Source: a virus
Virus record (IMG/VR): IMGVR_UViG_3300045988_149268
Span: 1-64,000 of that record
Length of the DNA stretch: 64,000 nt
Reading direction: 5' to 3' (one strand)
Shown here: one piece after another, positions 286 to 62,712 of the stretch
Layout: each line of letters opens with the position of its first letter
Position numbering within the stretch: position 1 is the first letter of the stretch
Made by a program: the position numbers and the translations under genes
The notes under the pieces: model-generated
What the model was told of the DNA's origin: nothing
Seen by the model: only the letters and a program-made list of their open reading frames with translations
Databases searched by the model: none

Positions 286-1164
286 TTGATTAATTTAAAT
301 TTACCTGATTTTGATCTTGGTTATAATGCTTATCGCACGTTATTTGAATTAACTGCTCAACATCCAGAAATTGTATATGATGATACTAAAATCGCTGCAA
401 TTTTTGGTATGTTTAATGGAGCGATTTGGAATGGTGGCGGCATTGTTCTAGGCGGATCTGTTACAAAACAATATGTTGAAGAGATTGTGCATTTTTATAA
501 CGATATTATGCGAGTGCCGATTCGTTTTACTTGCACTAATTCTTTAATTACTGAAAAGCAATGTTATGATACATATTGCAATATGATTCTTAAAACTGCC
601 CATAATGGCAAAAATGAAGTTTTGACCTCTTCACCAATTTTGGAGCAATATCTGCGCACAGAATATCCACATTATAAATTCTGTAAGAGCATTATTACAA
701 CCGCCAATGAGCCATATGATACAAGTGGTAAATATGATTTGGTAGTTATGAAACGTCGTATGAATAATAATTGGGAATTTTTAGATACTATTCCTATTGA
801 AATGCGAGGCAAAATTGAATTTTTATGTTGTGATCCTTGTCCGGATAATTGCCCACGTATTTATAGCCACTATAGGGATTTTGCAAGAGCACAAGTTGAA
901 TTTGATGTAGGTTCATCTAATGTTAAATGCTCAATGATGGATGTAAAAGGTCAATTTACTGATTATTATACAAAACATTTGGAAACTTATATTTCACGAG
1001 AAATGATTGAAAAAGAATATGCACCTCGTGGTTTTACTCAATTTAAATTAAGTGGAAGAACAAATATTGGAGCAATTATTATGGATATTGCTAATTATTA
1101 CATTAAACCAGAATATAAGGATGATATGATCCAATATTTATATGGCTCCTATATAGGAGGTTAA
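286..1164 (+). CDS. Hypothetical protein (Cys-rich, CCDPCPDNCP motif); TTG start
   Basis: 292-aa ORF with strong RBS aaggaggaaaagg upstream; no TAG codons; no recognisable family. Confidence 0.6.
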   Translation: MINLNLPDFDLGYNAYRTLFELTAQHPEIVYDDTKIAAIFGMFNGAIWNGGGIVLGGSVTKQYVEEIVHFYNDIMRVPIRFTCTNSLITEKQCYDTYCNMILKTAHNGKNEVLTSSPILEQYLRTEYPHYKFCKSIITTANEPYDTSGKYDLVVMKRRMNNNWEFLDTIPIEMRGKIEFLCCDPCPDNCPRIYSHYRDFARAQVEFDVGSSNVKCSMMDVKGQFTDYYTKHLETYISREMIEKEYAPRGFTQFKLSGRTNIGAIIMDIANYYIKPEYKDDMIQYLYGSYIGG

Positions 1165-1165
1165 T

Positions 1166-3379
1166 ATGTTTGATATTGTAATTCCAACTTATAATACCCC
1201 AGAAAATTTGTTATTAGATTGTTTAAATGGCATTTAGCAATAGCAAATTGATCATTCACTAATTAATGTTATTTTAATTAATGATGCTGGTCAAGCAATT
1301 GATATAGATAGTATTAAATCTTTATATGATTTTCAAATATCATATTATATCAACGATACGAATGTCGGCCCAGGTATTTGTCGGCAATTTGGAGTAGAAA
1401 AAGCATCAGATTGGATTGTTTTTTGCGATGCTGATGACATCTTATTAAAAGACGCTTTATCACAATATTTTAATTTTATTCAACAGGATAAAGACATTGA
1501 CATTATTTATCCCGCACAGATTAATTTGTTGGATGAATTTTTAGCGCAATAGATTGTGTCAAATAATTTTCCAGATGGTTTATATGCAGTATGTGTCAAT
1601 AAGCATTTTTTAACACAACATCCTGATATTAAATTTTTGCCGTATTATTATCACGAAGATGGCTTATTTACTATGTAGTGTGCAATTCATAATCCTCGTG
1701 CAGTCGGCGCAAATGGAGAAATTATAGCTCATAGAATTGGCAGATATGAGTCTTTAGCAACTTTTAAAAACACAGCTATTTATGATTTAAGCTTGATGGC
1801 AAGCGCATATGCGATTTATCATCATTTTTTAAATGAGCAAGAACAACTATACCTATATAATGATTAGAGAAATTTTTATATAGAAATATTATTAAGTCGT
1901 TTGACATTTTCTGATGCTCTTGAGAATAAAGATAATCAAACATTTGTAAATCTACTGTCATTTTTTATCACTTGTATTAAAAGAGCTTTACCTTATGAAA
2001 TAGTAGAATATTTTATACAAAATTTTAGTGAAACGATTTTTAATTGTAATATTTATGATTACTATCCATCTAATTTTTTAAATGATTTAACGCAATTCTG
2101 TGAAAATGACAATCAGACAATTTTTAATTATTTATCTCAAATGGGCAAATTGGCGTTTGAGACATATGTTAAATTAAATAATATTGCATTGCCAGAATGT
2201 ACAATCACTATTCCAACTTATAATAACTCTAAACAATAGATTGAAAGAATTTTAAATCATTTTAGTAGATAGAGTGCCGCAAAGTATATTAATATTTTAA
2301 TTATAGATGATGGCTCAACAAATAATGAACTATCTCTTGTTGAATACCCAGAAAATTTGAAGATATAGATAATTAGATCTAAATTTAATAAGGGTGTTGG
2401 ACGAGCCAGACAAATTGGGCTTGATAATGTTCATACCCCATATGTAATGTTTTTTGATATGGACGATGATATTATTTATGACGACATCGTTTGGCATTAT
2501 CTTGCATTTTTCATGGCACACCCTGATTATACCGGTATTCGAGGAAAAGAAATTTGGAGAAATCCAGCGCAAAATGATAAATTACAAGAAGATGTCTCAT
2601 TAAATAGTTTACACGGACTGTGCTGTAAAGTAGACACATTAAGAGAATATGATATTAAATTTAAACCTTGGCAATATGCTGAAGATGGAATGTTTACTTG
2701 CACAATACTTTTATATGGCTTAAAAATAAAATCTTTAGAAAAAGAGACATTTTATTTCAGAGATCGTGGTTATTTAACTGAAAATATTGAAAGCACTGTT
2801 GGTAATTTAAATTTTGCCACAGATTCTTGTTTGATTATAAGAGCGCTTTTGGAAATTATGGATAGTGCAAAAGCGAATCTTGAAATTATAGAAAATTGTA
2901 AAGATTGTCTTATTAATGAAGTTTAGAATTTAAGTAATTCTATGTTTCCATATGGAAAAAATGAAGAACTTGATACGATAAAAACACAATTTTTACGCGA
3001 TCACGTAATAGATCCAAGAATTAAAAATATTTTATCTATTTATTATTTATATGAGGCAGTTCGTGTTATACCCTTTGCCATATTAAAAGCTATAAAACAA
3101 TAGCCTTGGGCTTGGGAAAATTCATCTTTAATAATGGCTATAGATAATTTACTCGCTAATGATGACTGTTATTATATAAAAATGGCATCAGGCACCGAGA
3201 ACAAAATTTATACAATAGATGGATTAGAAAAAGAAACAATAGAATGGTTTCATGACTATTTGGACTATTGTAAAAATTTACAATAGGAATGTAAAGATTT
3301 AATAATAAATCTTCCACCTTAGGCTATAAAACATTAGCCTTGGAACTATAAAACATATCAATGGAAAGGAAGAAACTAA
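1166..3379 (+). CDS. Tandem family-2 glycosyltransferase (two GT2 domains plus C-terminal extension), read through ~13 in-frame TAG codons
   Basis: Frame is open from ATG 1166 to TAA 3377 except for TAG; two copies of the GT2 signature (IPTYN...IND/DDGS...DADD and ITIPTYNN...IIDDGST...FDMDDD); track fragments 1901-2239 and 2447-2926 are in this same frame. Confidence 0.65.
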
Positions 3380-3690: not shown

Positions 3691-3717
3691 TAACCACCAA
3701 TGGTGGTTATTATTTTA
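3691..3717 (+). terminator. Rho-independent terminator
   Basis: ATAACCACC-AAT-GGTGGTTAT hairpin followed by T-rich tract. Confidence 0.65.
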
Positions 3718-3732
3718 ATTGGAGGAATTAAA

Positions 3733-4791
3733 ATGTCTACTTTAAAGATAGGGCCTGGAGCAGCATCTTTAGGCAATGGTGACAGAAAGGCCGGAGTGCG
3801 ATGTAATTTTAATGCCAGTGGAACCGCAGTTGGTTATGATACAAATACTTATAATTATTCGTTATTTTCTGTAACAATGAATATTTCTCTTTGTAAATAT
3901 TATTCTGTATACGGATATTTTGACGTATATAATCAAGCGGGCACCTTAATTGGAAGAACTAAATAGTGGAATGTGGCAGAAAATGCTGGTTCTGTTAAAG
4001 CCTCCGGTGCATCAGCTATATCTTGTACTTTTACTTTAATTAATACCAATCTCGCTGCAGCAATGTAGACGAGTAGCTTTTATTTAATTATTCGTAGAAG
4101 TGGCGGAAGTGGCAACTGCTGTAATATTAGATCTGGTTGTACTGGCACGCTTACTATTAATTATACAAGAACTACTAAAAATAGCCCCCCAGTTCATCCT
4201 ACTACAATTTATTATCCGGCCACAAACGGTGTAAAGACATATAATACAAAACCATACTTTTCATCTTTAACTGGCACAGACCCCGATGGGAATAATGTGC
4301 AATTAGGTTATGCAATTTATGATACAACTACAAAAACATGGCCACAAGCGACAAAATGGTTAGATGGATGGCATAGTGGAGGAACAAGAGTATATTGGTC
4401 ACATTAGACTGCGCTAACCACTGGTCATTATTATTAGCTTTATACATATGCAAGAGATACAAGTTATACCGTTGGAACGGGCAGTTCTGGTCTTCGTGGT
4501 TTTTATGTTTTAGATAATGGGCTATCTATTGGCAGTATAATTGATGACGCGACGATAGATACGTTATAGACAAAAATTAATAATGTTCAAGCATATTACG
4601 GACAAACAAAAAAAATTTTTACTGTTTGTGATAATGGCACAAAATTAAACCGTTCACAAATAGTTGAATTAGAAAATGCAATTGAAGGAACCCCATATAT
4701 TGCTACTACTGCCTATACATCTCCTGCGGTAGGAGACAAAGCGATTGCCAGTCAATTATCTTCCATTAACACAATTATTGGAAATGCTTGA
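3733..4791 (+). CDS. Hypothetical Thr/Gly-rich protein (possible surface or structural protein), 5 in-frame TAG
   Basis: ATG 3733 after RBS ggaggaattaaa; frame open to TGA 4789 apart from 5 TAG; track piece 3700-3966 is its N-terminus. Confidence 0.6.
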
Positions 4792-5323: not shown

Positions 5324-5399
5324 GCGGGATTAGCGCAGTTGGTAGCGCAACTGGCTTACATCCAGTCGGTCGGCAGTTCGAGTCTGTCATTCCGCACCA
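5324..5399 (+). tRNA. tRNA-Val (anticodon UAC), CCA encoded
   Basis: Acceptor GCGGGAT/ATTCCGC, D-arm GCGC..GCGC, anticodon stem ACTGG/CCAGT with loop CTTACAT, T-arm GGCAG TTCGAGT CTGTC, ACCA end. Confidence 0.75.
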
Positions 5400-25411: not shown

Positions 25412-26460
25412 CAACTAAAAATCGGCGTATGAAAAACTTTTCGCATATCAAGCGGGTCAGAATCTATTAATTATATGTAGAGGGTTCTCATATAATAATA
25501 GAAGATGGCTAACGGGAAACCCTAAACTGAAAAGCAAGGGAACCCCGTGGGAAACAAATATTAATCCATCTTCTAAGGAGATGGGAAAATGATTGGAATT
25601 TATAAAATTACCAATAAAATATCAGGAAAATCTTATATTGGTTAGTCTAATGATATTGAAAGAAGATTTAAAGAGCATTAGACAATAGGCAATAAAAGTA
25701 GAATTCCTGTTGATATCGCTATTCAAAAATATGGAAAAGAATCATTCACATATGAAATAATTGAACTTTGTTAGATTGAACAATTAAATGAAAAAGAAGA
25801 ATACTGGATTAAATTTTATGATTCATATAACAATGGTTATAATTGTAATCCTGGCGGAAATCAATCTTCAATAGGAGAAAACAATGGACGAGCGAAATTA
25901 ACTATTGAAGATGTAGAAATTATTCGGCAAGCCTACGCCACGCATAAAAAACAAAGGGAAATATATGAAAAATTTAAAGATAAAATTTCATTTAATTATT
26001 TTCAAAATGTTTGGGCGGGCAAAAGCTGGTCGCACATAATGCCAGAAGTTTTTACAGAAGAAAATAAACATTATTATATTTATGAAAATAGTAAAAACGG
26101 CAATGGTTTTAATTCTTAGTTTTCAGATGAAGAAATTGTTTATATTAGACAAAGATATGTGAATGAAAGTGCAAAACAGATATATAACGACTATAAAAAT
26201 AGAATTAAATTTCAAAGTTTTTAGGCAATATTATGGGGTCGTTCATATTCTGATTTGCCATTATACAAGAAAAAAGAAAAGCGATGGATTAATATTTGAA
26301 CCTGTATCGACTATCTCCTAAGCCTTATGGGCAGGAGAGTAGGGCTACTATTGATACGTAGTCTGGTTTTAGGAAACGAAGCCAGTTAAATGCCGAAATG
26401 GTTTCCTCTCTTTATGAGAGTAAAAGATAGTCAGCGCTCATAGAAATATGAGAATAAGTG
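25412..26460 (+). mobile_element. Group I intron interrupting topoisomerase subunit gene, carrying GIY-YIG homing endonuclease
   Basis: Exon1 stops right after DADV; downstream frame resumes with DGSHIRILFFTFIWKFCPELIEKGYIY; intron ends with G; internal free-standing ORF with own RBS. Confidence 0.7.
25589..26299 (+). CDS. GIY-YIG homing endonuclease (intron-encoded; 3 in-frame TAG)
   Basis: GIYKITNKISGKSYIG-Q-SNDIERRFKEH motif; RBS ctaaggagatggg. Confidence 0.7.
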
Positions 26461-28573: not shown

Positions 28574-29485
28574 AAAAACTAACTATTGCCGTGGCTAAAT
28601 CGCGGAAAAAATCTGGAAGGCTGAGATGCTAATCAGAGGTGAAGGCTATACAAAGTATGGCCAGCCGCAACGCATAGAGAGTGAAAAGATATAATCTCTC
28701 CACGAGGCCGCGATAATTTGGTCAGAATTTTTTAAAGTATCTATTTGATAATTTCATACTTAATGGGGATGAAAAATCACCCACATTAAGGAGGAATTAT
28801 AATGATTGAATATAATCGACACGTTTTTGATACAATAAACACAAATGAAAAAGCATACTGGTTAGGATTTATCGTCGCTGATGGATATTTAAATGATAAT
28901 AAAAATATGTTAAGAATAAAACTCGGCGATAAAGATAAACGTCATTTAGAAAAATTCATTAAATTTTTAGATGGCGATGACTCAATGCTAAAAAAAGAAA
29001 TCAACAGTATAACTGGGAATGTTTAGTGGTATGTATCAACTTACGCGCCACAAATTCATGAGGCTTTAAAACAATTAAAAGTAGAGCAAGCAAAGAGTGG
29101 GAAAGAACATATCCCTCCTATCAGCTCCTGTTATTATAGAGATTTTATCAGAGGGTTGTGGGATGGAGATGGATTTATTAGAGAGAATTTAAGTGGTATT
29201 GGATTAGTTGGCTCTTATGAGTGTTTAGCTTTTGTTTAGGAAGTTTTTGAAACGGAGTTAAAAATTCAACCACTAAAAATTTATTCTCATTGCAATACGT
29301 ATAAAATTGAATATCGCTCTACAAAAAAATCAATTCCATTAATTATGAATTATTTATATCAAGATAAGGATGTAGCACTTGATAGAAAAATGGAATTAGC
29401 TGACCGAATTAAAAAGATATGCTAAACTTACATAAATAAAAATGTAAGAATTATAGGATAAAAAGCCTATAAGGTAATAATATTG
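28574..29485 (+). mobile_element. Group I intron in gyrA-like gene carrying LAGLIDADG homing endonuclease
   Basis: Exon1 ends HPHG (T at junction), exon2 begins DSSIYGALVGIAQ; intron ends in G. Confidence 0.7.
28802..29425 (+). CDS. LAGLIDADG homing endonuclease (intron-encoded; 2 in-frame TAG)
   Basis: Two LAGLIDADG motifs: LGFIVADGYL and LWDGDGFI; RBS aaggaggaattataatg. Confidence 0.7.
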
Positions 29486-31627
29486 GATAGTAGTATTTAT
29501 GGCGCTTTGGTTGGTATCGCTCAGCCATGGACAATGCGGTATCCATTGATTGATTTTCATGGCAATTGTGGTAGTCGTGATGGTGATGGGCCTGCTGCAT
29601 ATCGTTATACAGAATGTCGATTGGCTCCAATCGCAGAAGCGACTTTGGAAGATATTAAAAAGAATACGGTAGATTGGCAAACTACATATGCAGAAACAGA
29701 AAAAGAACCTGTTTATCTCCCGGGGCGGTTTCCGAATCTTTTGTGCAATGGAACAACGGGTATTGCTGTTGCAATGGCTTGTTCTTTTGCTCCACATAAT
29801 CTAAATGAAGTAATTGACGCAGCAATTTTTTATATGAATAATAGAGATGCTACCGCAGCAGATTTATGTGATTATGTTAAAGGTCCAGATTTTCCCACTG
29901 GCGGTGTAGTTATTAACAAAAATGAGCTAAAAACCGCATATACTACTGGTAGAGGAAAAGCTCGTATCCGCGGTGAATATATTGTAGAAACTGGAAGAAC
30001 ACATGATACTCTTGTATTTACAAGCATTCCATACAAAGTTTCAAAAGAAACCTTGGCAGAAGAAATCGACAAACTCTGTGAAACAAAAGAGATAGAAGGA
30101 ATTGCAGAAATTCGCGATGAAAGTAATAAAAAAGGCGTCCGATTTGTAATTGAAATTCAAAAAGGATATAGCGCCGAGGTTGTAGCGAATAAGTTATATA
30201 AATTAACTGATTTGGAAACTACTTATAGTTTTAATCAAGTTGCTCTTGTAAATAAAGCTCCAAAATTAATGACACTAAAAGACTTAATTCAAGAATATGT
30301 AAAACATCAAGAAGATGTTTTCAATAGACGTTGTAAATTTGAACTTGAAAAATTGAATACACGTATTCATATTCTACAGGGTCTTGTAAAAGCATCTGAA
30401 AATATTGATAAAATTATTCAAGTTATTAAACGTTCTGAAGACACGGCAAGAGCAAGAAATAATCTAATGGATGTATATCTTTTTACTGAGGCGCAGGCGC
30501 AAGCTATTTTGGATATGAAGTTAAGTAAATTAGCTCATATTGAAAAAGTAGCTTTGGAAAGAGAACTTGAAGATAAACAATCCACAGCGGAAAAACTACT
30601 TGTTATTTTAAACGATCCCGCTGTTGCACAAAAAACTTTGTGTGAAGAGTTGCTTAGTTTTAAATTAAGATTCGGCGATGCTCGTAGAACTAAAATCGAA
30701 CAAATTAATATTACACCAGAAGAAAAAGAAGTAATTGAAATTCAATCAGAAGATTGCGTAGTTTTGGTTACTGAAACTGGAAATATTAAGAGAATGACAA
30801 CGAGTGCATTTAAAGCACAAAAAAGAAATGGGCAAGGTGTAAAAACACAAAACGATATTACACATAGCATAATTTCTACCAATACTATTGATGCGTTAAT
30901 GGTATTTACAAATTATGGTAGAGTTTATAAAGTTTCAGTAAATGATATTCCCGCAGGTAATAATGTTTTTAGAGGCGTGCCAATTAATACTCTTGTTTCA
31001 ATGGACGCCAAAGAAAAATTCATTGCAATTGCTTCTGTTGAGCGTGGGACAAAAGAAGGGCAATATGTATGGTTCGCCACGAAAAATGGTCTTATTAAGA
31101 AAACCGCATTGTCTGAATATGCCGGAGTTAAACGTAAAACAGGTATTACAGCAACGAATATAAAAGATGGCGACGAACTTGTGAGTGTTTTTGTCGCTCC
31201 TGATTGTCAGCTTATGTTCTTTACTGAAAATGGAATGAGTCTTCGTATCAATGGTAAAGACATTGGCGCAACTGCGAGAACAAGCATCGGTGTTAAAGGT
31301 ATCGCATTAAAAGATGATGACAAAACCGCGGTTGTTATTCCTTGTTTTAATGAAACTGAAGTTATTTTGGCTTTTGATAATGGAACAATAAAACGAGTGC
31401 CGATTAAAGAATTTACAATTCAGAATCGAGCTGGTAAAGGTTTAATCTGCGCTAAAAATTGTAAAATTATTGATGCTGTTGCTATTAATGCTACGGATAA
31501 AATATTTGTTGCTGGGACAATATCTAATATTTGTCTTGCAGTATCAGAAATTACTTTGGGCTCTCGTGCTTCAACTGGAATTAAAGCAATTAAAAATGGT
31601 GACATTATCGCCATTACAAAGGTATGA
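29486..31627 (+). CDS. Type IIA topoisomerase GyrA-like subunit, exon 2
   Basis: DSSIY...RYPLIDFHGNCGSRDGDGPAAYRYTECRL... GyrA breakage-reunion domain and beta-pinwheel-like C-terminus. Confidence 0.75.
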   Translation, partial: DSSIYGALVGIAQPWTMRYPLIDFHGNCGSRDGDGPAAYRYTECRLAPIAEATLEDIKKNTVDWQTTYAETEKEPVYLPGRFPNLLCNGTTGIAVAMACSFAPHNLNEVIDAAIFYMNNRDATAADLCDYVKGPDFPTGGVVINKNELKTAYTTGRGKARIRGEYIVETGRTHDTLVFTSIPYKVSKETLAEEIDKLCETKEIEGIAEIRDESNKKGVRFVIEIQKGYSAEVVANKLYKLTDLETTYSFNQVALVNKAPKLMTLKDLIQEYVKHQEDVFNRRCKFELEKLNTRIHILQGLVKASENIDKIIQVIKRSEDTARARNNLMDVYLFTEAQAQAILDMKLSKLAHIEKVALERELEDKQSTAEKLLVILNDPAVAQKTLCEELLSFKLRFGDARRTKIEQINITPEEKEVIEIQSEDCVVLVTETGNIKRMTTSAFKAQKRNGQGVKTQNDITHSIISTNTIDALMVFTNYGRVYKVSVNDIPAGNNVFRGVPINTLVSMDAKEKFIAIASVERGTKEGQYVWFATKNGLIKKTALSEYAGVKRKTGITATNIKDGDELVSVFVAPDCQLMFFTENGMSLRINGKDIGATARTSIGVKGIALKDDDKTAVVIPCFNETEVILAFDNGTIKRVPIKEFTIQNRAGKGLICAKNCKIIDAVAINATDKIFVAGTISNICLAVSEITLGSRASTGIKAIKNGDIIAITKV

Positions 31628-31650
31628 GCAAAAACTCATACCTTTGACTT
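31624..31650 (+). terminator. Rho-independent terminator
   Basis: GGTATGAG-CAAAAAC-TCATACC hairpin then TTTGACTTT. Confidence 0.6.
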
Positions 31651-31672
31651 TATTAAAAATTTTTGATATAAT
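31644..31672 (+). promoter_or_regulatory. Sigma-A type promoter TTGACT-N17-TATAAT
   Basis: Promoter-family member. Confidence 0.55.
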
Positions 31673-31700
31673 AAATTATAAGAAAGAGAGAGGTTATGAA

Positions 31701-32846
31701 ATGCTCTGTATTCTTCCAATGAAAATTAATAAAATCCCAAAAGGGAAAGAGTCAATGCTTCCATCTCTTTGCGCGAGTGGCAATTATTTTGCAGAATTAA
31801 AGAAAGATGGATATTGGTATGAATTTGAAAAATCTGAAGATGGTTCTTTTTTGTTTAGTTCTAATATTAGTGCAACAACTGGAACTCTTGTGGAGAAATC
31901 TGCAAATGTTCCACACATTATGGAAGCTATGAATGTTCTTCCTATTGGCACAGTAATTGTTGGCGAAATTTATTATCCAGGCAAGACGTCAAAAGATGTA
32001 ACTCCAATTATGGGGTGTTTGCCTGAAAAAGCAATAGAAAGACAAAATGGTGAATTTGGTCAGCTTCATTATTATATTCATGATATTTTATTTTATGATG
32101 GAAAAGACTTGCGTGAATACGGTGCTTGGATTCGATACCAACTTTTGAAAAAAGTATATTTTAAACACGGATTAAATTATTGTGAATCTTTTATTGAGTT
32201 GGCGGATGCTATAACAGATAATATTGAAGAAGCTATTCATTCTGCTCTTGATGCAGGAGAAGAAGGAATGGTTCTTAAAAAGAAAACTTCTCCATATTAC
32301 ACTGGTAAGCGTTCACCGGTTTGGGAAACCATTAAGGTTAAAAAGTCAGATACTTGTGATGCTATTCTTATGGGCTATTGTTCTCCAACTAAATATTATG
32401 ATGGAAAACTTGATGTGCAGACCAACTATTGCGGAAAAGACGCTTCTGAATGGCCATATTGGGTAGTTGAACAACTTGATTTAAATACGCATAATTTACT
32501 ATCAGAGAAAAAGGTGCCAGTTGGTAAGTTTGAAGTCATCAAAGGCATAAATTTTAGAACTATGCCAGTAACAAAAGCATATTATTATGGCTGGGTTACT
32601 TCAATTCGTATCGGCGCTTTTGATAAAAATGGGCAAATAAGAGAAATCGGTACTGTTTCTTCTGGTTTGACTGATGAATTTGAAGCAGATTTTGCCCAAC
32701 ATCCAACCAAGTATTTGGGCAGAGTCGTTGAGTTAGCAGGTATGGAAAAGAATAATGATGACCATACTTTGCGGCACTTTTACTTTAAAGGATTTAGAGA
32801 AGATAAAAGTGCTAATGAGTGTTTGATTGATGAAATATTCTCTTGA
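31701..32846 (+). CDS. ATP-dependent DNA ligase
   Basis: Motif I ELKKDGYW, motif IV EGMVLKK, motif V TIKVKK; real start ATG 31701 after RBS gagagaggttat (track ORF over-extended from 31470). Confidence 0.7.
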   Translation: MLCILPMKINKIPKGKESMLPSLCASGNYFAELKKDGYWYEFEKSEDGSFLFSSNISATTGTLVEKSANVPHIMEAMNVLPIGTVIVGEIYYPGKTSKDVTPIMGCLPEKAIERQNGEFGQLHYYIHDILFYDGKDLREYGAWIRYQLLKKVYFKHGLNYCESFIELADAITDNIEEAIHSALDAGEEGMVLKKKTSPYYTGKRSPVWETIKVKKSDTCDAILMGYCSPTKYYDGKLDVQTNYCGKDASEWPYWVVEQLDLNTHNLLSEKKVPVGKFEVIKGINFRTMPVTKAYYYGWVTSIRIGAFDKNGQIREIGTVSSGLTDEFEADFAQHPTKYLGRVVELAGMEKNNDDHTLRHFYFKGFREDKSANECLIDEIFS

Positions 32847-33598: not shown

Positions 33599-33609
33599 AA
33601 GAGGTGCCT

Positions 33610-34593
33610 ATGCCAGCTATAATTTTAGGAATTATTTGCGGCTTACTCGTTTGTTGTAACTGCTTTTTAATTTTTCGGATTGGGAAAAATATAAAAGAAG
33701 AACAAAAAACTAAAGAAGCCGTAAATTATTAGAATAATAACTTACAGTAGTTAATAACTAATTGTAAGGATTTAGAAGAAAAACAAGATGATTTGTATGA
33801 ATATAAAAAATATTTGGATTCATAGGTGTCCGCGGCCAAAGAAGAATATAATATGCTTCAATAGTATTGTGAACACGCAAATCAAGAATATCATACAAAA
33901 ATATCGTTGATGGAATCTTCACAAAAGACAAAAGAATAGGAATTAATTCAAAAATATAATATTTTATGTGAAGAACAAGAAGAGCGTTTAGGAGAAGTCT
34001 CACGCGACTTTCTAACAGAATGGCGTAAAATAAGTGAAAAACTTTTAAATGATAAAAACGCTTTGGCGGCACAAGTTGAAGAGGAACGCGCCACTTTAAA
34101 TGCTGCTATTGATGCTGCAAAAAGGGCATAGCTTGAACAAATTAAAAAAGATTATTATAAAATTATGCTCGATTCAGTCGCGTAGAAAGATATTGAGCAT
34201 TTGCGCTCTATTGAACCATTATTAACTAGACCAGAGTCATTAAATAAAATTATTTGGAAAGTTTATTATGAAAAACCAGTCTCTGATATGATTGGTAGAG
34301 TTGTCGGCGACACAACTAAAACGGGTATATATAAAATAACGCATTGCGCGAGTGAAATGGCTTATGTTGGTTAGGCTGTTGATATTGCTTCACGTTGGCG
34401 TCAACATATAAAGCGAGGACTTGGTGCAGAAACGCCAACACAAAATAAATTATATCCAGCAATGAAAAAGTTTGGGCCAGAAGCATTTATGTTTGAAATT
34501 CTTGAAGAATGTGATAGAAGTAAATTAGATGAACGTGAAGATTATTGGCAAGATTTTTACCGAGTTAAAGAATTTGGATATAGTATAAAATAA
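33610..34593 (+). CDS. Membrane-anchored coiled-coil protein with C-terminal GIY-YIG nuclease domain (8 in-frame TAG)
   Basis: N-terminal TM IILGIICGLLVCC, long coiled coil, C-terminal GIYKITHCASEMAYVG-Q-AVDIASRWRQH GIY-YIG motif; frame open from ATG 33610 to TAA 34591 except TAG; not in ORF track because of TAGs. Confidence 0.55.
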
Positions 34594-43642: not shown

Positions 43643-44821
43643 ATGGAACTTACAGAAAAACAGAAACAAGGATTGGACATTGCAATTAAAAGATACCGTG
43701 CCGGTGAAGCATATACAGTTATTAGCGGTTATGCTGGAACTGGTAAAAGCACTCTTGTAAGAGTTATCGTTGGGTCACTTGGTCTTGCGCCAGGACAAGT
43801 GGCCTATATTGCATATACAGGAAAGGCTGCACAAGTTTTGCGTTCTAAAGGATGTTCAACAGCAAAAACAGCGCATAAACTATTATATAAATCAATTTTA
43901 AATGAAAAAACCGGAAAATTTTACAATATTCCTCGTGTTTATTTAGATGGCCCATACAAACTTATTGTTGTTGATGAAGTTTCTATGCTACCAAAAGAAT
44001 TATGGGATTTATTGCTTTCACATCATATTCATGTATTGGCACTCGGCGATCCCGGACAGTTGCCGCCAGTTAAAGCAGAAAGTAATGGAGTTTTAGATAA
44101 CCCACATATTTTCCTTGACGAAATTATGCGACAAGCAAAAGACAGTGAAATCATTCGTTTAACAATGAATATTCGTGCTGGAAAGCCTCTTGAATTATTT
44201 AGCGGACAAGACGTGCGAATTGTTGATCAAGATGAACTTAATAAGCCTGGTATTTGGAGATGGCCAGATCAAATTTTAGTCGCAAAAAATGCTACAAGAC
44301 ATTCTATTAATACTTTTATTCGTAAAGAGCTTTATAATAGAATAAATCCTTTTCCAGAAGAAGGAGATAAAATTATTTGTCTAAGAAATGATTGGAATAC
44401 AGCAAATGCAGCGGGAGATGCTTTAGTTAATGGTTTAACTGGCACTATTGAGAATATCAGAGAACAAGATCCAGTTAATCCTTTTGCCGAAGCTACTTTT
44501 AAAGCAGATTTTATGCCTGATTTTGAAGGTTCTGGAATTTTTACTGATTTAGAAATGGATGAATGTATTTTTACTACACATAAACAAAGTAAAAATAAAG
44601 TCCATCCAGATTGGTCTCTTCCTAAAGAATACGCACCAGAACAATTTGATTATGGATACGTGATTACAACTCATAAATCTCAAGGTAGCGAATATAATAA
44701 AGTATTAGTTCTTGAAGAATTTTTAAGAAGTCAAGGTTCTGAAGACCATATTCGTTGGCTATATACGGCCGCAACAAGAGCAAGTCAAAAATTAATTATT
44801 GTGAGGGACTATCGTTTATGA
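43643..44821 (+). CDS. SF1 Dda/RecD-like DNA helicase
   Basis: Walker A GYAGTGKST, DEVSM, GDPGQLPPV, C-terminal VITTHKSQGSEY. Confidence 0.7.
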   Translation: MELTEKQKQGLDIAIKRYRAGEAYTVISGYAGTGKSTLVRVIVGSLGLAPGQVAYIAYTGKAAQVLRSKGCSTAKTAHKLLYKSILNEKTGKFYNIPRVYLDGPYKLIVVDEVSMLPKELWDLLLSHHIHVLALGDPGQLPPVKAESNGVLDNPHIFLDEIMRQAKDSEIIRLTMNIRAGKPLELFSGQDVRIVDQDELNKPGIWRWPDQILVAKNATRHSINTFIRKELYNRINPFPEEGDKIICLRNDWNTANAAGDALVNGLTGTIENIREQDPVNPFAEATFKADFMPDFEGSGIFTDLEMDECIFTTHKQSKNKVHPDWSLPKEYAPEQFDYGYVITTHKSQGSEYNKVLVLEEFLRSQGSEDHIRWLYTAATRASQKLIIVRDYRL

Positions 44822-45306
44822 TTCATTTTGCAACGAGTTATTTTTATCAAATTAGATTTTTTCGACCAGATATGATTCCTCTAAGCACAGCAAAATTTGA
44901 TCCAAAATGGTTCCATCAGAATAAAGGGCATAATTTTACTTTTTTTGATAAAAATTATGTGCTTAATGGTTTACGATTTGAAGAATTTGCGCCTGGGCCA
45001 ATGTGTGAAGGATTATGTTGTGGGCCAGAAACTTGTTCTAAAAATGTAAATAATTGCGACTTTCTTAGTGCTTATCGTCGCCAGCTTGAAAAGGTTTCTT
45101 TTGAAAATTTAATTCATAGATGTGAAGATTGTTTGGCTTGGTATAAAATTAAACACAATATAGAATTTACAGAACCGACTTTCGTGATGATAGTTTATGA
45201 AACTCCGACAAATCCTTGTAGTGAGCGTTCAGCCATTCAAGACTGGTTTAAATTAAAAGGTATTGAATGTAAAGAGCTTTCTATTGACAAATCATTAAAA
45301 ATATGA
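44817..45306 (+). CDS. Hypothetical Cys-rich protein
   Basis: ATG overlapping helicase stop (ATGA); track ORF begins earlier at 44755. Confidence 0.45.
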
Positions 45307-45312
45307 TATAAT
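45284..45312 (+). promoter_or_regulatory. Sigma-A type promoter TTGACA-N17-TATAAT
   Basis: Consensus hexamers. Confidence 0.6.
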
Positions 45313-45355
45313 ATTATATAGAAAAGGAGCTCTTCAAGGAGGTGGAATTAAAGTA

Positions 45356-48300
45356 ATGGGATTTTTTAATGGACATAATCATACCCATTACTCTTAGGGT
45401 CTAACCTAAGAATTGTCGATTGTATTATTAAGCCAAAAGACCTAATTGATAGAGCGATTCAATTGGGTCTTTCTGGTATTGCTATCACTGATCATGAATG
45501 TTTAAGTGCGCATATGGAAATAAATTTATATGCACAAAAAATTCATGAACAATATCCAGATTTTACAATTGCTCTCGGTAATGAGATTTATTTAACTGAA
45601 ACAAGAGAAAAAGGACAGCCGTATTATCATTTTATTTTAATTGCAAAGGATGCTATTGGTCACAAAGCATTGCGTGAACTTAGTTCAACTGCTTGGTATA
45701 ATTCTTATTTTGACCGTGGCATGGAACGTGTGCCGACGCTTAAAAGTGAATTATCAAATATTATAAATAAATATAAGGGGCACCTAATAGCAACGACAGC
45801 CTGTATTGGTGGAGAATTGCCAAAATTATTGCTGGCTCGTAACAGTTTAAAGATGGCAAATTTGAACACAAATGAAGTAGATGAAAAAATTAATGATTTT
45901 ATTACATTTTGTATAAATACTTTTGGACAAGATAACTTTTTTATTGAATGTGCGCCATCTACTGCAAGTGATCAGATTCTTGTGAATAGACTTCTTGCTG
46001 CAATTAGTAAAGAATATAATCTTAAACTTGTTGTGGCAACAGATAGTCATTATCTTAGTAAAGAAACAAGATTCGCGCATAAGGCTTATTTGAATTCAAA
46101 AGATGGCGAACGTGAAGTTGACGCTTTCTATGAATTCGCCAGATTGATGGATGAAAAAGAAGTAAAGGAATTGCTTCATTACTCTTTTCCATATGAAGAA
46201 AAAATTGGTGATGCAAGATGCTACATTAAGAATCTAGAAAAAGATTTTGTTGATGTAATTTTAGAAAATACTGAATATGTTCGTCAGCAAATTACATATT
46301 ATTCATTGGCTCAAAATCAACATATTCCTACTGTTAATTTACCTGAATATCCTGCTTATATTCAAGCTGGTATTGAAAAGTATCCAACACTAACTAAACT
46401 ATTTAGCTCTTCTAATAATCAAGAGAGATATTGGGTGAATGAGTGCTGGAAAGCGCTTATTGAAAAAAAGTTAATAGATAATGATGAATATGTTGCGCGC
46501 CTTGAAACAGAAGCGGATGTAATTGATTTTATCGGTAATAAACTTGGGACTTGTCTGTTCGCATATTTCAATACTTTTAAACACTATATTGATTTGTTCT
46601 GGGAGTGCGGCAGTATCGTTGGCCCAGGTCGTGGTTCAGCCACCGGCTTTTTAAGCAATTATCTTTTGGGTATTACTCAGCTTGATCCAATTCGTTGGAA
46701 ACTCCCTTGGTTCAGATTTTTGAATAAAGAGCGTGCAGAATTGCCTGATATTGATATTGATTTGGCGCCCTCAAAAAGACCCGCAATTTTCAATGCGATT
46801 AGACAAGAGCGTGGAGAACTTGGCTTAGTTCAGGTCGTAACTTTTGGCACAGAAGGCACCAAAAGTGCAATTCAAACTGCTTGTCGTGGATATCGACATC
46901 AAGATGAGAATGGAATTGAACTATATCCAAATGGCATTGATGTTGACATTGCGTTGTATATTAGCTCTTTGATTCCTCAACAGCGTGGTTTTCTTTGGTC
47001 TATTCATGATGTTGTATATGGAAATGAAGAGCTTGGTCGAGCGCCAGTTAAAGAATTTATAAAAGAAGTTAATCAATATGATGGTCTTTTGAGTATTATC
47101 GAGAATATTGAAGGTCTTATTAAGCAACGTGGTATTCATGCTTCTGGTGTTATGTTATATGATGTAAATCATATTTATGATACTGCGGCGATTATGAAAG
47201 CACCTTCTGGAGATTTGGTAACAGCTTATGATCTTCATATGGCAGAAGCCGCCGGAGATACGAAATATGATTTTCTTGTAACAGAAGTTTCAGACAAAAT
47301 TATTGAAACATTAAAATTAATGGAAGATGATTCTGTTATTCCGACCGATTCTTTAAGAAATATCTATAACAAATATCTCCATCCAGAAATAATTGATACA
47401 GATACGTCAGATATTTGGCAAGCTCTTGCGAATGGTTCTGTTTTGGACGTTTTTCAATTCGGCACTGGTGTTGGATTAGCAATGGCTAAAAAACTTCAGC
47501 CTAAAAATCCTATTGAAATGACTGCGGCGAACGCTATGATTCGTTTGATGTCTGAGCCAGGAGTAGAAAGTCAGCAAGATAGATACTATCGTATTAAAAA
47601 TGGTGGTATTAAAATTTTTGATGATGAAATGCGCCAACATAAGTTGCCTGAACATATGATTCAAGCTCTTCATAAATATTGTGATGAATATTATGGATGC
47701 GTTCCGATTCAAGAGCAAATGATGATGATTCTTATGGATAAAAATATTTCTTCATTTACTCTTGCCGAAGCAAATGATGCACGTAAAATCGTTGCTAAAA
47801 AACAAATGAAACGGATTCCAGAATTAAGAGAGCATTTCTACAGAACGATGGAAAAAGAATATGCTGATTATGTTTGGGAATTAGCAATCGCACCACAATT
47901 GGGTTATGCTTTTAGTTTGAACCATTCACTTCCATATTCTTTTGTTGGTATTCAGACTCTTATCTTAGGCACACGATTTAATCCAGTGTATTGGAATACC
48001 GCTTGTCTTATTGTAAATAGTGGTGCGACAGATCCAGAAATGGATGGAACTACAAATTATGGTAAAATAGCAAAAGCAATTGGTGACATTACAAGCCGAG
48101 GGATTATAATTAAACCAGTTGATATTAATATTTCTGAATATGGGTTTAAACCTAAAGCAGATTCTGGTGAAATTTTCTTCGGACTAAAAGGACTTTTGAA
48201 TGTCGGCGATGATGTAATTGATATGATTTGTAAAAATCGTCCATATGTCAATTTTGCAGATTTTTTGCTAAAAGTGCCAGCAAATAAACAAGCGATTATT

Positions 48301-60652: not shown

Positions 60653-62350
60653 TTATACTGTTGCTGCTCCGAGAGCCTTCCACGTCGCTTTACCAACGAT
60701 ACCATCTACTTTCAAATTTTTATCTTTCTAAAAATTTCTTACAGCTTGTTGGGTCTTAGAACCAAAATTACCATCAATTCCAGTTTTACCAACATCGTAG
60801 CCAAGAGCAACAAGAATGGTCTATAATTCTTTTACATAATCATTAATCATTCTTTTTTTAAGCATTGGATAATTTGTAAAATCTTTTCCTTCCGCTGGTT
60901 TTGTTTCTTCTGGCTTATCTTTTCCTTGCGCCGCAATTAAAGCTGCAAAAGTTTTCTTACCAGCTAAGCCATCTACTTTTAAATCATTATCTTTCTAAAA
61001 AAGTTTTACTGCATTGATGGTTTCATCCTAATAATATCCATCTGTTGGAGCTTTATAATCTAACTCGCACAATAATTCTTGTAGTTCTTTAACATCAGTC
61101 CCAGAATAACCTTTTCTTAAAGTTCGAGATCCAAATTTATATTCTTTCAATGAATCATTAGAATCAGTATCTGGTTTTTGCACAGAACCTGAAACATATT
61201 CTACACCTGGAAACTCATACCAGTCAGTCCAAGGTCTATCTTTCAATTTGGTAATAATAATTCCTTTTGCAAAGCCATAGGCTTCAACAACTTCTCCATT
61301 GCCAATATAATATCCAACATGTCCATCTTTACGAACAGCAAGGCCAGGAATTTCAGGAATTGTATTAATTGGACCGTAATTTTTCTTTTTACTTTTAGCA
61401 TATGTAAACATTCCATTTGCACTTCTGTCAGGACATCCGTTGGAACCATATTTACTAACAATTTTTTTACCAGTTCCAATAGCTTCAATAACACCAACGC
61501 CACCGTTTGTCCAAACAAAACCTTTGCCCAGCCCAACGCAATCAGCACATACACATTTATTCGCTATTGCTTTATTATACTTCGCCATACGGCTTGAAGT
61601 GTAATGGCTTGGATATTGTCTAGATTTAGATTTTAATACAGAAGCTGTGCAATTATATACACAAGTTCCATACCAATATGGCTGTCCAACCATCTACTTT
61701 AAAAAATTAACAAAATCAATATTCGTAAGTCCCATAGTTTTCTTTCCTCCATTAAGAGTCGAGGTGTTCTCACCATAGTTGTTACGGATGTCAGTACCTG
61801 GATAATAAAAATTTAAAATCTCAATATAAGTTTTACCAATAGACGCAGCGTATTTGGCGCCAGCTTGGCTCATACCAACTCCGTGGCCGTTCTTTTTGCC
61901 TTGGGAAGCGGCCCGGTCCCATGGGTCATCGCGCGCAATTAAGTATGGTCTATCCCCTCCCCATACTTCTTTTGATGAATACGTGCGACCGCCATTTGTT
62001 GCAGCATAATTAGCATTTGTGATTAAAGAATTTTTATAAAATAGAACTTGCCCTTCTGTATCAGAAACAGCTTGATGTGCTTTGTCATAAGCGGCAGAAA
62101 AACGTGAAGCTCTAAATGCCTAATCTATACTACTTTTATCTGTAATATAGCCTTGTCTTTTATACTTATTTAAAGCAAAAGTTCTAGCAGCTATTGCTTG
62201 CGCTTTCCCAGCTTCTAAGGGCGCATTACCAATTTCTGATGGAACAACTCCTTTTAAATATTCTTCAATATCAATTTCAATTAGATTTTTATGATAATAA
62301 TTAATATTTTCTGAACGACTTAATTTTACTTTAATTATCATAACAATCAA
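60653..62350 (-). CDS. Multidomain cell-wall hydrolase: SpoIID/LytB-like domain + NlpC/P60 peptidase + 2x PG_binding_1 (4 in-frame TAG)
   Basis: SpoIID-like AQAIAARTFAL..NGGRTYSSKEVWGG..GHGVGMSQAGA; NlpC/P60 Cys ADCVGLGKGFVW and His GHVGYYIG; C-terminal PG_binding_1 repeats where TAG sits at conserved Gln (F-Q-KD..L.VDG); track ORFs 62120-62350 and 61028-61693 share frame; 60340-60705 spurious. Confidence 0.6.
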
Positions 62351-62365
62351 TCCTAAAAAAAATAA

Positions 62366-62387
62366 GCCGCATTTGCGGCTTATTTTT
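62366..62387 (-). terminator. Hairpin ATAAGCCGCA-TT-TGCGGCTTAT between - strand genes (possible attenuator/terminator)
   Basis: Perfect 10-bp inverted repeat followed (on - strand) by T-run. Confidence 0.5.
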
Positions 62388-62712
62388 ATTTTATCTCACT
62401 AAATTCAACTTCAATATTGCGATTAGCATTCTCAGCTCTATCATTAATCTGAGAAACGCTTAATGAAACGGGGATATGATCATAAAGCACATTATCAGAA
62501 TTGCCAATTAAATGAAAATCAATAATTTGAGTTCCATTCTCAACAAGAGAAAGTAAATAAGTAATCGCCAAATTCGCTTTATCTGGACTTAAAGAAACTG
62601 AAATCGTTTTATTGATTTCACCATCTCTTAAATAAGCATAATTAACAGATAAAACCTCAATCTTATTATTCGTGTCCTTGTTTAATATAAGCTGCATAAA
62701 AAGTCTCCTCAC
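62386..62712 (-). CDS. Hypothetical protein (likely start at MQLILNK ~62697)
   Basis: RBS aagtgaggagactttttatg precedes second Met. Confidence 0.45.
   Translation of the reverse strand: MRRLFMQLILNKDTNNKIEVLSVNYAYLRDGEINKTISVSLSPDKANLAITYLLSLVENGTQIIDFHLIGNSDNVLYDHIPVSLSVSQINDRAENANRNIEVEFSEIK

Follow-up and report, generated by a model that had tools for sequence, protein, structure and literature searches.

A stop-containing insert between matched serine codons at the start of a phage PolIII-alpha-type polymerase gene: a candidate ribosomal hop at the end of a proposed homing-endonuclease cassette

The window analysed here is the whole stretch of 64,000 nucleotides at positions 1 to 64,000 of the virus record IMGVR_UViG_3300045988_149268, and our subject is the start of its gene for a PolIII-alpha-type DNA polymerase, so classified from its PHP, DNA_pol3_alpha, finger and HHH_6 domains; the domain set matched in orthologues is PF02811, PF07733, PF17657 and PF14579. 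The start codon, an ATG at 45356-58, is preceded at 45336-45 by a Shine-Dalgarno-like sequence, AAGGAGGTGG, taken as the ribosome-binding site (RBS), and the first open reading frame (ORF1) reads ATG GGA TTT TTT AAT GGA CAT AAT CAT ACC CAT TAC TCT, that is MGFFNGHNHTHYS. After these 13 codons the frame meets TAG at 45395-97 and then TAA at 45407-09. The rest of the polymerase lies in the -1 frame, which is open from 45379 to the stop codon at 49267-69 and from 45394 reads L G S N L R I V D C I I K P K D L I D R A I Q L G L S G I A I T D H. No ATG, GTG or TTG occurs in this frame ahead of the TTG at 45463, from which a length of 1268 aa is counted. A sequence-only reading of the window had described this arrangement, and its account of the RBS and ATG, the 13 codons with HxH, the TAG, the nearby TAA and the continuation to the end of the gene without an upstream start is borne out; it offered a single-base assembly error, a programmed -1 slippage or a pseudogene as explanations. 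The features of the locus, in which TCT take-off and landing codons for a hop are proposed, are:

45284..45312, plus strand: sigma-70-type consensus promoter, TTGACA-17 nt-TG-n-TATAAT, with 12/12 hexamer matches and the TG present (alignment A2)
45325..45408, plus strand: cassette haplotype block of filler, RBS, copy of codons 1-13, gap and landing codon (from allele comparison, alignment A2)
45336..45345, plus strand: Shine-Dalgarno-like AAGGAGGTGG, which is the 3' end of an HNH ORF in the related sequences L028 and L138
45356..45394, plus strand: ORF1, 13 codons encoding MGFFNGHNHTHYS with the HxH of the PHP domain; it ends with TCT at 45392-94, where take-off is proposed
45395..45399, plus strand: non-coding gap TAGGG, of which the TAG at 45395-97 would occupy the A site at take-off
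45400..45402, plus strand: proposed landing codon TCT, the same as the take-off codon; decoding would restart at AAC 45403
45392..45411, plus strand: predicted hairpin, TCTTAGG (45392-98) with CCTAAGA (45405-11), with a loop GTCTAA holding the landing codon
45403..49269, plus strand: ORF2, 1288 codons and a stop, the remainder of the polymerase, with no in-frame TAG

Compared with contiguous orthologues that are 93-95% identical, the window has exactly 8 nt extra, in TAC TCT TAGGG TCT AAC (alignment A1); the insert may equally be taken as TCTTAGGG at 45392-99 or as TAGGGTCT at 45395-402. Against the closest orthologue, P0001 (DNA L004), which is 95% identical over its full length and begins MGFFNGHNHTHYSNLRIVDC, the window reads CAT TAC TCTTAGGG TCT AAC CTA AGA where L004 has CAT TAT, eight gap positions and TCT AAT CTT AGA. 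Taking out the 8 nt gives exact colinearity with the orthologues, as HTHYSNLR. A database search with the joined protein supplied the best 120 homologues, 117 of which have an uninterrupted HxHTxxSN(L/I/F)R start with no additional residues; an exact-protein look-up with the window's TTG-start ORF gave no match. The sequence-only reading had held that orthologues with a contiguous frame here would tell against recoding. Such orthologues do exist (P0001, P0137), but what they reveal is an 8-nt cassette and not a read error. The same insert is present in L028 (ERZ1034920), L136 (ERZ27237414), L137 (DRR198868) and L138 (SRR17241505), and a one-base variant, TAGTG, in L043, a 154-kb contig binned as Lachnospiraceae, all from different samples. 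A first scan of viral contigs with the exact insert gave no match. As the identical insert is found in independent assemblies, and interruptions also in related lineages, this is not a chance event.

Both ORF1 and ORF2 are under purifying selection. Over 3465 nt the window and L028 align without a gap at 97.4% identity, and their codon differences in ORF2 are synonymous in 77 cases and non-synonymous in 13. At the 5' end, the six codon differences between interrupted and uninterrupted alleles (GGA/GGG, AAT/AAC, ACC/ACT, TAC/TAT, AAC/AAT and CTA/CTT) are all synonymous. Since only synonymous changes are found around the site, ORF1 and the start of ORF2 are selected for the same peptide, which rules out an artefact or a pseudogene and, for the most part, re-initiation inside the gene. 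Of the full-length members listed in the polymerase's protein cluster at 90% identity, about a quarter have truncated N-terminal calls such as the gap gives rise to.

The same junction is interrupted in several phage lineages. Gapped-pattern scans of viral, metagenome and genome collections, together with a search for relatives, gave 13 distinct variants, all of them between the Ser and Asn codons of HxHTxYS-N(L/I)R. They are:

Window group: take-off TCT, gap TAGGG, landing TCT
L043: take-off TCT, gap TAGTG, landing TCT
L006: take-off TCT, gap TAAA, landing TCT
L005: take-off TCC, gap TAGGTAAG, landing TCC
L008/10/22/40: take-off TCT, gap TAAA, landing TTT
L023: take-off TCT, gap TGAA, landing TTT
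L013: take-off TCT, gap TAGT, landing GCT
L027: take-off TCT, gap TAGC, landing TCT
L014: take-off TCC, gap TAATG, landing TCT
L016: take-off TCT, gap TAG, landing TCT
L046: take-off TCT, gap TAGGTA, landing TCT
L047/51: take-off TCT, gap TAGG, landing TCT
L094: take-off TCT, gap TAAC, landing TCT

The inserts are 6, 7, 8, 9 or 11 nt long, and the relation between the two frames is 0, +1 or -1 depending on the lineage. Two features recur: a stop codon (TAG, TAA or TGA) lies directly 3' of the serine TCY in 13/13 variants, and TCY is repeated just ahead of AAY in 10 of them. The serine take-off codon is TCY throughout, as against 11 of 66 distinct uninterrupted genes, where the equivalent codon is TCA in 22, TCG in 18, TCT in 10, AGC in 9, AGT in 6 and TCC in 1. 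In the lineage comprising L008, L013 and L027, whose proteins are 73-86% identical to one another, every member has the interruption, and the closest relatives without it are ~62% identical; the gap is therefore old and has been maintained in that lineage. L006 and the window each have uninterrupted relatives that are 93-94% identical, yet are only 69% identical to each other, which indicates that the gap has been repeatedly gained or lost.

Recoding is required to express this gene, and a -1 slip accounts for the data far less well than a hop does. We think it likely that a colinear polymerase is made by a short hop over the 8-nt insert, and that the insert belongs to a mobile cassette, as its right-hand end. 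Ribosomes would start at ATG 45356 and translate 13 codons to the Ser UCU at 45392-94; with UAG then entering the A site behind it, the peptidyl-tRNA-Ser would unpair from this codon and re-pair on the identical UCU 8 nt downstream (45400-02), and decoding would restart at AAC 45403. The predicted product, MGFFNGHNHTHYS-NLRIVDC…, is colinear with all uninterrupted homologues. The codon match in the window is exact (TCT 45392-94 and TCT 45400-02), and because only the UCU-to-UCU hop gives the HTHYSNLR found in 117/120 homologues it is favoured over a -1 slip. For the variants as a whole, the most likely explanation is one type of event, a UCY-to-UCY hop to a codon 6-11 nt downstream with a stop in the A site. 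A scan of the window for a codon, a stop, N(0-9) and the same codon joining long ORFs gave no convincing site besides the polymerase.

The 7-bp hairpin predicted in the window has a folding energy of -9.5 kcal/mol (z about -6), and comparable hairpins are predicted in L014 (CCTAATG/CATTAGG), L046 and L006 (TCTTAAA/TTTAAGA). It is possible that the hairpin stimulates the hop, but as a universal requirement it was rejected, since roughly half of the variants have a weak hairpin or none; a search of Rfam found no RNA family at the hop site. Two other decoding schemes were also set aside: quadruplet decoding of TAGG or TAAA suits 7-nt inserts only and not the 8 nt of the window, and reading TAG as sense does not rescue the frame, which runs into the TAA at 45407-09.

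Within the window lineage, the interrupted alleles have in common a distinct block, aaggaggtggaattaaagta ATG … TAC TCT TAGGG TCT AAC, which extends from the RBS to the landing codon. This block, at 45325-45408 in the window, is common to L028, L136, L137 and L138, and uninterrupted alleles carry another 5' untranslated region, ataaaggagaatgtgag. Downstream of the landing codon the alleles are mosaic, L138 having AAC CTT AGA as in the uninterrupted type. In L028 and L138 a 244-codon ORF with four in-frame TAGs lies between the shared promoter and the block. It includes …PSLDHIIPKSRGGTNDINNLQFL… and ends …VENIKEVELK-TAA, so placed that TAATG overlaps the polymerase start, and it matches the Pfam HNH domain PF01844 with 24 bits (cut-off 21.4) and PHROG families of HNH/endonuclease VII type. 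In alignment A2 the element is inserted after the original RBS and brings the endonuclease gene, a new RBS, a copy of codons 1-13 and the gap; its right end is at or just past the landing codon. The window and L136 have no endonuclease ORF but keep the rest of the cassette, with short fillers that differ between them.

Endonuclease genes occupy the same position in other lineages. A homologue of the HNH ORF overlaps the polymerase start in L013 and L027, and a second endonuclease-type ORF is found there in L008, L010, L016 and L046, of a family matching phrog_374, 559 and 9084 ('HNH/homing endonuclease') with E down to 2e-48. Among distinct loci that have 1 kb or more of upstream sequence, and with the two families as queries, an adjacent endonuclease was found at 7/17 interrupted loci and 1/61 uninterrupted ones (Fisher p = 5e-5, relatedness ignored). 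The endonucleases of L008/L010 and L013/L027 belong to unrelated families, but both end …GD(D)-stop and overlap the same polymerase start (xTGATTAATATAAATACTCAG), which suggests, by comparison of these ends, that one endonuclease replaced another inside the cassette.

The 8-nt insert would thus be the right-hand end of a mobile cassette made up of an HNH gene, a new RBS, re-coded codons 1-13 and a stop-containing gap, of which the window phage would have lost the endonuclease gene and kept the remainder. By analogy with T4 mobA/gene 60, the role of the gap and the synonymous changes is probably to protect the phage's own copy of the polymerase gene from the endonuclease, while the hop would keep an essential gene expressed; both the target of the endonuclease and the immunity role are putative. 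We would describe the element as an orphaned, miniature cassette of the homing-endonuclease/bypass type. A mutational origin for some inserts can also be envisaged: TCTTAGG is the reverse complement of CCTAAGA, and template switching at such a quasi-palindrome could yield a stop and a repeated TCT in some variants. As the origin in general it fails for the variants without complementarity and for the shared haplotype block and the endonuclease linkage, and it is at most a possible contributor.

The promoter at 45284-45312 is common to interrupted and uninterrupted alleles and kept in relatives, and the conservation of this consensus sequence suggests that the polymerase gene is transcribed by the host RNA polymerase. 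The ORF just upstream of it all in the window (44755-45306) is the usual neighbour in uninterrupted genomes as well; it was considered as an endonuclease and rejected, being an ordinary neighbour of uninterrupted genes with no Pfam or PHROG match.

Several observations weigh against the hop and the cassette. L005, L008, L013 and L047 have a weak hairpin or none, and single changes weaken it in L138 (CTA to CTT) and L043. The landing codon is not a serine codon in 3/13 variants (TTT in two, GCT in one), and these would depend on near-cognate re-pairing or else on a +1 frameshift; with UUU, re-pairing would go through G·U at the middle position. The variants with an in-frame TAG, L016 and L046 (6 and 9 nt), could simply be read through if TAG is sense there. 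Un-stimulated hops over stop codons in Escherichia coli are inefficient, so that a sufficient yield of polymerase is in question, and we infer the hop and its efficiency from sequence. As for the cassette, the window itself has no adjacent endonuclease ORF, and the association test is limited to two endonuclease families and ignores phylogenetic non-independence.

The sequence-only reading had suggested that expression of the polymerase might be tied to the recoding state of the phage. In the window phage TAG is a sense codon, since Pfam domains continue across in-frame TAGs in a two-domain glycosyltransferase (14 TAGs), a SpoIID/PG-binding endolysin (6) and a GIY-YIG gene (5). The in-frame TAG counts by ORF are:

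1130-3379, plus strand: 14
3694-4791, plus strand: 5
16153-17028, plus strand: 6
25577-26299, plus strand: 5
33601-34593, plus strand: 8
60653-62395, minus strand: 6

The replication module (~36-50 kb) is nearly TAG-free. No suppressor tRNA(CUA) was found within the 64-kb window, though one may lie elsewhere in the genome; the tRNA genes seen in the window are tRNA-Thr(CGU) and tRNA-Val(UAC), at positions 39-114 and 5324-5399. Some of the TAG-containing genes resemble free-standing homing endonucleases. That at 25577-26299 (plus strand) is the one with a GIY-YIG Pfam match, that at 33601-34593 (plus strand) has a GIY-YIG-like motif, seen by eye, in its C-terminal part, and the product of 16153-17028 (plus strand) is 34% identical to the endonuclease-type ORF upstream of the interrupted L008 and L046 polymerase genes. 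In other lineages TAG occurs within polymerase ORF2 itself, at codon 636 in L013/L036, codon 72 in L039 and codon 167 in L040, and as these TAGs align with ordinary polymerase residues TAG is sense in these phages also. L033 has an in-frame TAA at codon 183, where relatives have Glu (FIECAPS).

In such a phage the gap might be mainly a regulatory sensor of the recoding state, with polymerase output set by the speed at which UAG is decoded in the competition between RF1 and a phage suppressor tRNA. The many genes with sense TAGs in the window phage, beside a polymerase ORF2 that has none, would suit such a sensor, as would the RF2-type CUU UGA C found in the same region of other lineages (see below). 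A suppressor that read the gap UAG would run the ribosome into the TAA at 45407-09, four codons on, and abort synthesis, so that the yield of the hop could fall as suppression rises. On the other hand, sister lineages have TAA or TGA at the same position, and in L013 and L040 there are sense TAGs within the same polymerase gene, whose translation must therefore take place with the suppressor present. The link to recoding is thus possible for the window but not general, and the association with homing endonucleases accounts for both origin and retention of the gap without any regulation. We regard a sensor as an unlikely main role. It is compatible with the hop and cassette as a secondary effect, and possibly the link is a side effect of the gap rather than the reason for it.

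A programmed -1 (or +2) frameshift at UCU-UAG, as put forward in the sequence-only reading, would give …HTHYS-LGS-NLR…, three residues longer than the relatives. Part of that proposal holds: recoding at UCU-UAG is needed, the stop codon is part of the signal and, being in the A site, is a known cause of pausing, and the two frames are indeed related by -1. One homologue, P0052, tolerates one additional residue nearby, and the classical shifty stop CTT TGA C is present in some related lineages. The Pfam PHP scores do not discriminate well between decoding models, being 88.7 bits for the -1 product and slightly more, 90.9 bits (from profile position 3), for the hop product. It is the slippage that fits the site less well. 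C UCU UAG is not an X XXY YYZ slippery heptamer, and re-pairing would be from UCU to CUC; the three-residue insertion is found in 0/117 contiguous homologues; the inserts of sister lineages, with 6, 7, 9 and 11 nt, would call for shifts of 0, +1, 0 and -1 at near-identical sequences; and the TCY that precedes AAY in 10/13 variants is left unexplained. We consider a frameshift quite improbable. A +1 shifty stop of the prfB or antizyme type was rejected for the window, since an 8-nt insert needs -1 or +2 and a +1 shift fits only the CTT TGA C or 7-nt loci.

Still less credible is that ORF1 simply ends at its TAG and an HxH-less polymerase is made separately, its translation beginning inside the gene or at a non-canonical codon such as ATT 45412 or TTG 45463, the gap being an inert scar. 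Gene callers do begin P0143, P0145 and P0050 at an internal TTG or ATG, and the PHP domains of some PolIII-alpha proteins are catalytically degenerate. Yet ORF1 keeps MGFFNGHNHTHYS and differs from the parental allele only synonymously, codons 45403-45462 likewise differ between strains only synonymously in the ORF2 frame, no RBS or canonical start lies between 45403 and 45463, and the TTG-start product (64.1 bits) drops 27 bits of PHP score. That the interruption arose as an artefact of assembly or sequencing, or that the gene is a pseudogene lately inactivated in a defective phage, can practically be dismissed. An indel that breaks the frame as early as codon 14 in an essential gene does have the typical look of an error when seen in a single sequence. 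The difference, however, is 8 nt rather than the single base supposed in the sequence-only reading, lies outside any homopolymer, recurs identically in five other assemblies from different studies and as a 1-nt variant in a sixth, L043, is kept in another lineage across relatives of 73-86% aa identity, and goes with strong purifying selection after divergence.

A different interruption is found five codons downstream of the hop site in the polymerase genes of L093, L095, L112, L100 and L102, which read …TTA CTT TGA CTG CAT…; in L093, L095 and L112 the CTT TGA C lies ~15 nt past the Asn codon. In all of these a +1 shift at CTT TGA C restores NIRLLDCIN, and L100 too has an endonuclease-type ORF directly upstream of its polymerase gene. 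These sites, taken with the endonuclease ORF of L100, strengthen the view that the N-terminal coding region of the polymerase is a hot spot for endonuclease-associated, stop-dependent interruptions. Farther into the gene, at about residue 420-830, long non-coding inserts break the polymerase ORF in L010, L016, L019/L025 and L034. They look like mobile introns; the L010 and L019 inserts have the motif ggctaacggtatcagtgaaat in common and L008 has the same protein free of any insert, while Rfam gave no match for the intron-like inserts of L010, L016 and L019. Elsewhere in the window, the ORFs 29483-31627 and 31470-32846 (plus strand) lie in different frames with an overlap of ~157 nt, and could be another frameshift-joined gene, such as one for a tail component.

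Taking the lineages together, we tentatively propose, and would put the chance at somewhat less than even, that there is a family of minimal bypass cassettes (a Ser codon, a stop, 0-5 nt and the same Ser codon) spread by HNH and other homing endonucleases within the first ~20 codons of the polymerase in gut and rumen phages. This would be a second, independent system of the mobA/gene 60 type, needing little beyond matched UCY codons and a stop. As its trigger is a stop codon, polymerase output in stop-codon-recoded phages would reflect the state of termination and suppression, and the cassette may thereby connect translation-termination efficiency with replication in amber-recoded phages. To our knowledge natural programmed bypassing occurs in very few systems (the T4 gene 60 family, the yeast mitochondrial byps and, as a candidate, the phiHau3 terminase), and our literature search found no description of the polymerase interruption. 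A second endonuclease-linked bypass, independent in sequence, host and gene, would make the T4 arrangement a recurring evolutionary solution, and the 13 natural variants, with gaps of 3-8 nt, three stops, cognate or near-cognate landing and a hairpin present or absent, could define the minimal requirements for hopping. There is also a consequence for annotation, in that gene callers truncate such polymerases (P0050, P0143, P0145) and the genomes may be discarded as frameshifted or defective.

One of the known recoding systems is that of prfB, the RF2 gene, whose +1 frameshift heptamer is CUU UGA C. The CTT TGA C loci in L093, L095, L112, L100 and L102 are like it, with no upstream Shine-Dalgarno-like stimulator found at these sites, whereas the interruption in the window is not fixable by +1. 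Another comparison is with the non-programmed hops over a stop to a nearby cognate codon, independent of frame, described with E. coli reporters (Weiss et al. 1987, as cited in PMC10732093 and 10.1101/2022.08.31.505936). As far as those citations describe them, the TCT TAG TCT of L016 has exactly the form of these reporter hops, which were low-level and artificial, unlike the natural and conserved arrangement in an essential gene seen here.

In the terminase of Streptomyces phage phiHau3, 10-nt UUA inserts are candidates for short-range bypass in three genes (Antonov et al. 2023, PMC10732093), which provides a second precedent for gaps as short as these. As set out in the part of that paper considered here, the likeness lies in frame-breaking inserts of 7-10 nt at a conserved junction in an essential phage gene, a slow codon in the A site, and a colinear product that argues for a hop over a frameshift. 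The same part of the paper gives the trigger there as a rare sense codon, UUA, tied to the host bldA tRNA, where ours is a stop codon; it concerns three genes, against many lineages and 13 variants here, and mentions no endonuclease association.

The closest parallel is T4 gene 60 with its MobA element. There an HNH gene lies directly upstream of the interrupted ORF and overlaps it, the element encodes a diverged copy of the segment that it replaces, and it ends at or just past the landing codon (Manning & Atkins, bioRxiv 10.1101/2022.08.31.505936; PMC5462505). A stop follows the take-off codon, the landing codon is matched and a hairpin forms around the take-off codon; the bypass sequence protects the DNA from the endonuclease, and among relatives the endonuclease has been lost with the bypass kept, or swapped for other families (10.1101/2022.08.31.505936; PMC5462505). 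The polymerase system differs from gene 60 in several ways. The take-off and landing codons are separated by 5 nt (an 8-nt insert) and not by 50 nt, the codon is Ser UCU instead of Gly GGA, and the host gene is a PolIII-alpha polymerase rather than a topoisomerase, with no sequence homology between the two. Only 13-21 codons precede take-off, and a nascent-peptide signal as long as the one in gene 60 is therefore unlikely. The carriers are gut and rumen phages of low-GC bacteria, with TAG a sense codon in the window phage, and the bypass is one that we infer from sequence comparison. In its organisation, however, the polymerase locus is like T4 gene 60 (Huang 1988; Bonocora 2011; Agirrezabala 2017) in having a non-coding insert in an essential replication-related gene, identical take-off and landing codons, a UAG immediately 3' of take-off and, in the window, a predicted hairpin spanning the take-off codon and the stop. 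The likeness extends to the MobA element, with an HNH gene upstream that overlaps the interrupted start (L028, L138), an element that brings its own diverged copy of the coding segment and ends at or just past the landing codon, relatives that have kept the gap but lost the endonuclease, and other endonuclease families at the same position.

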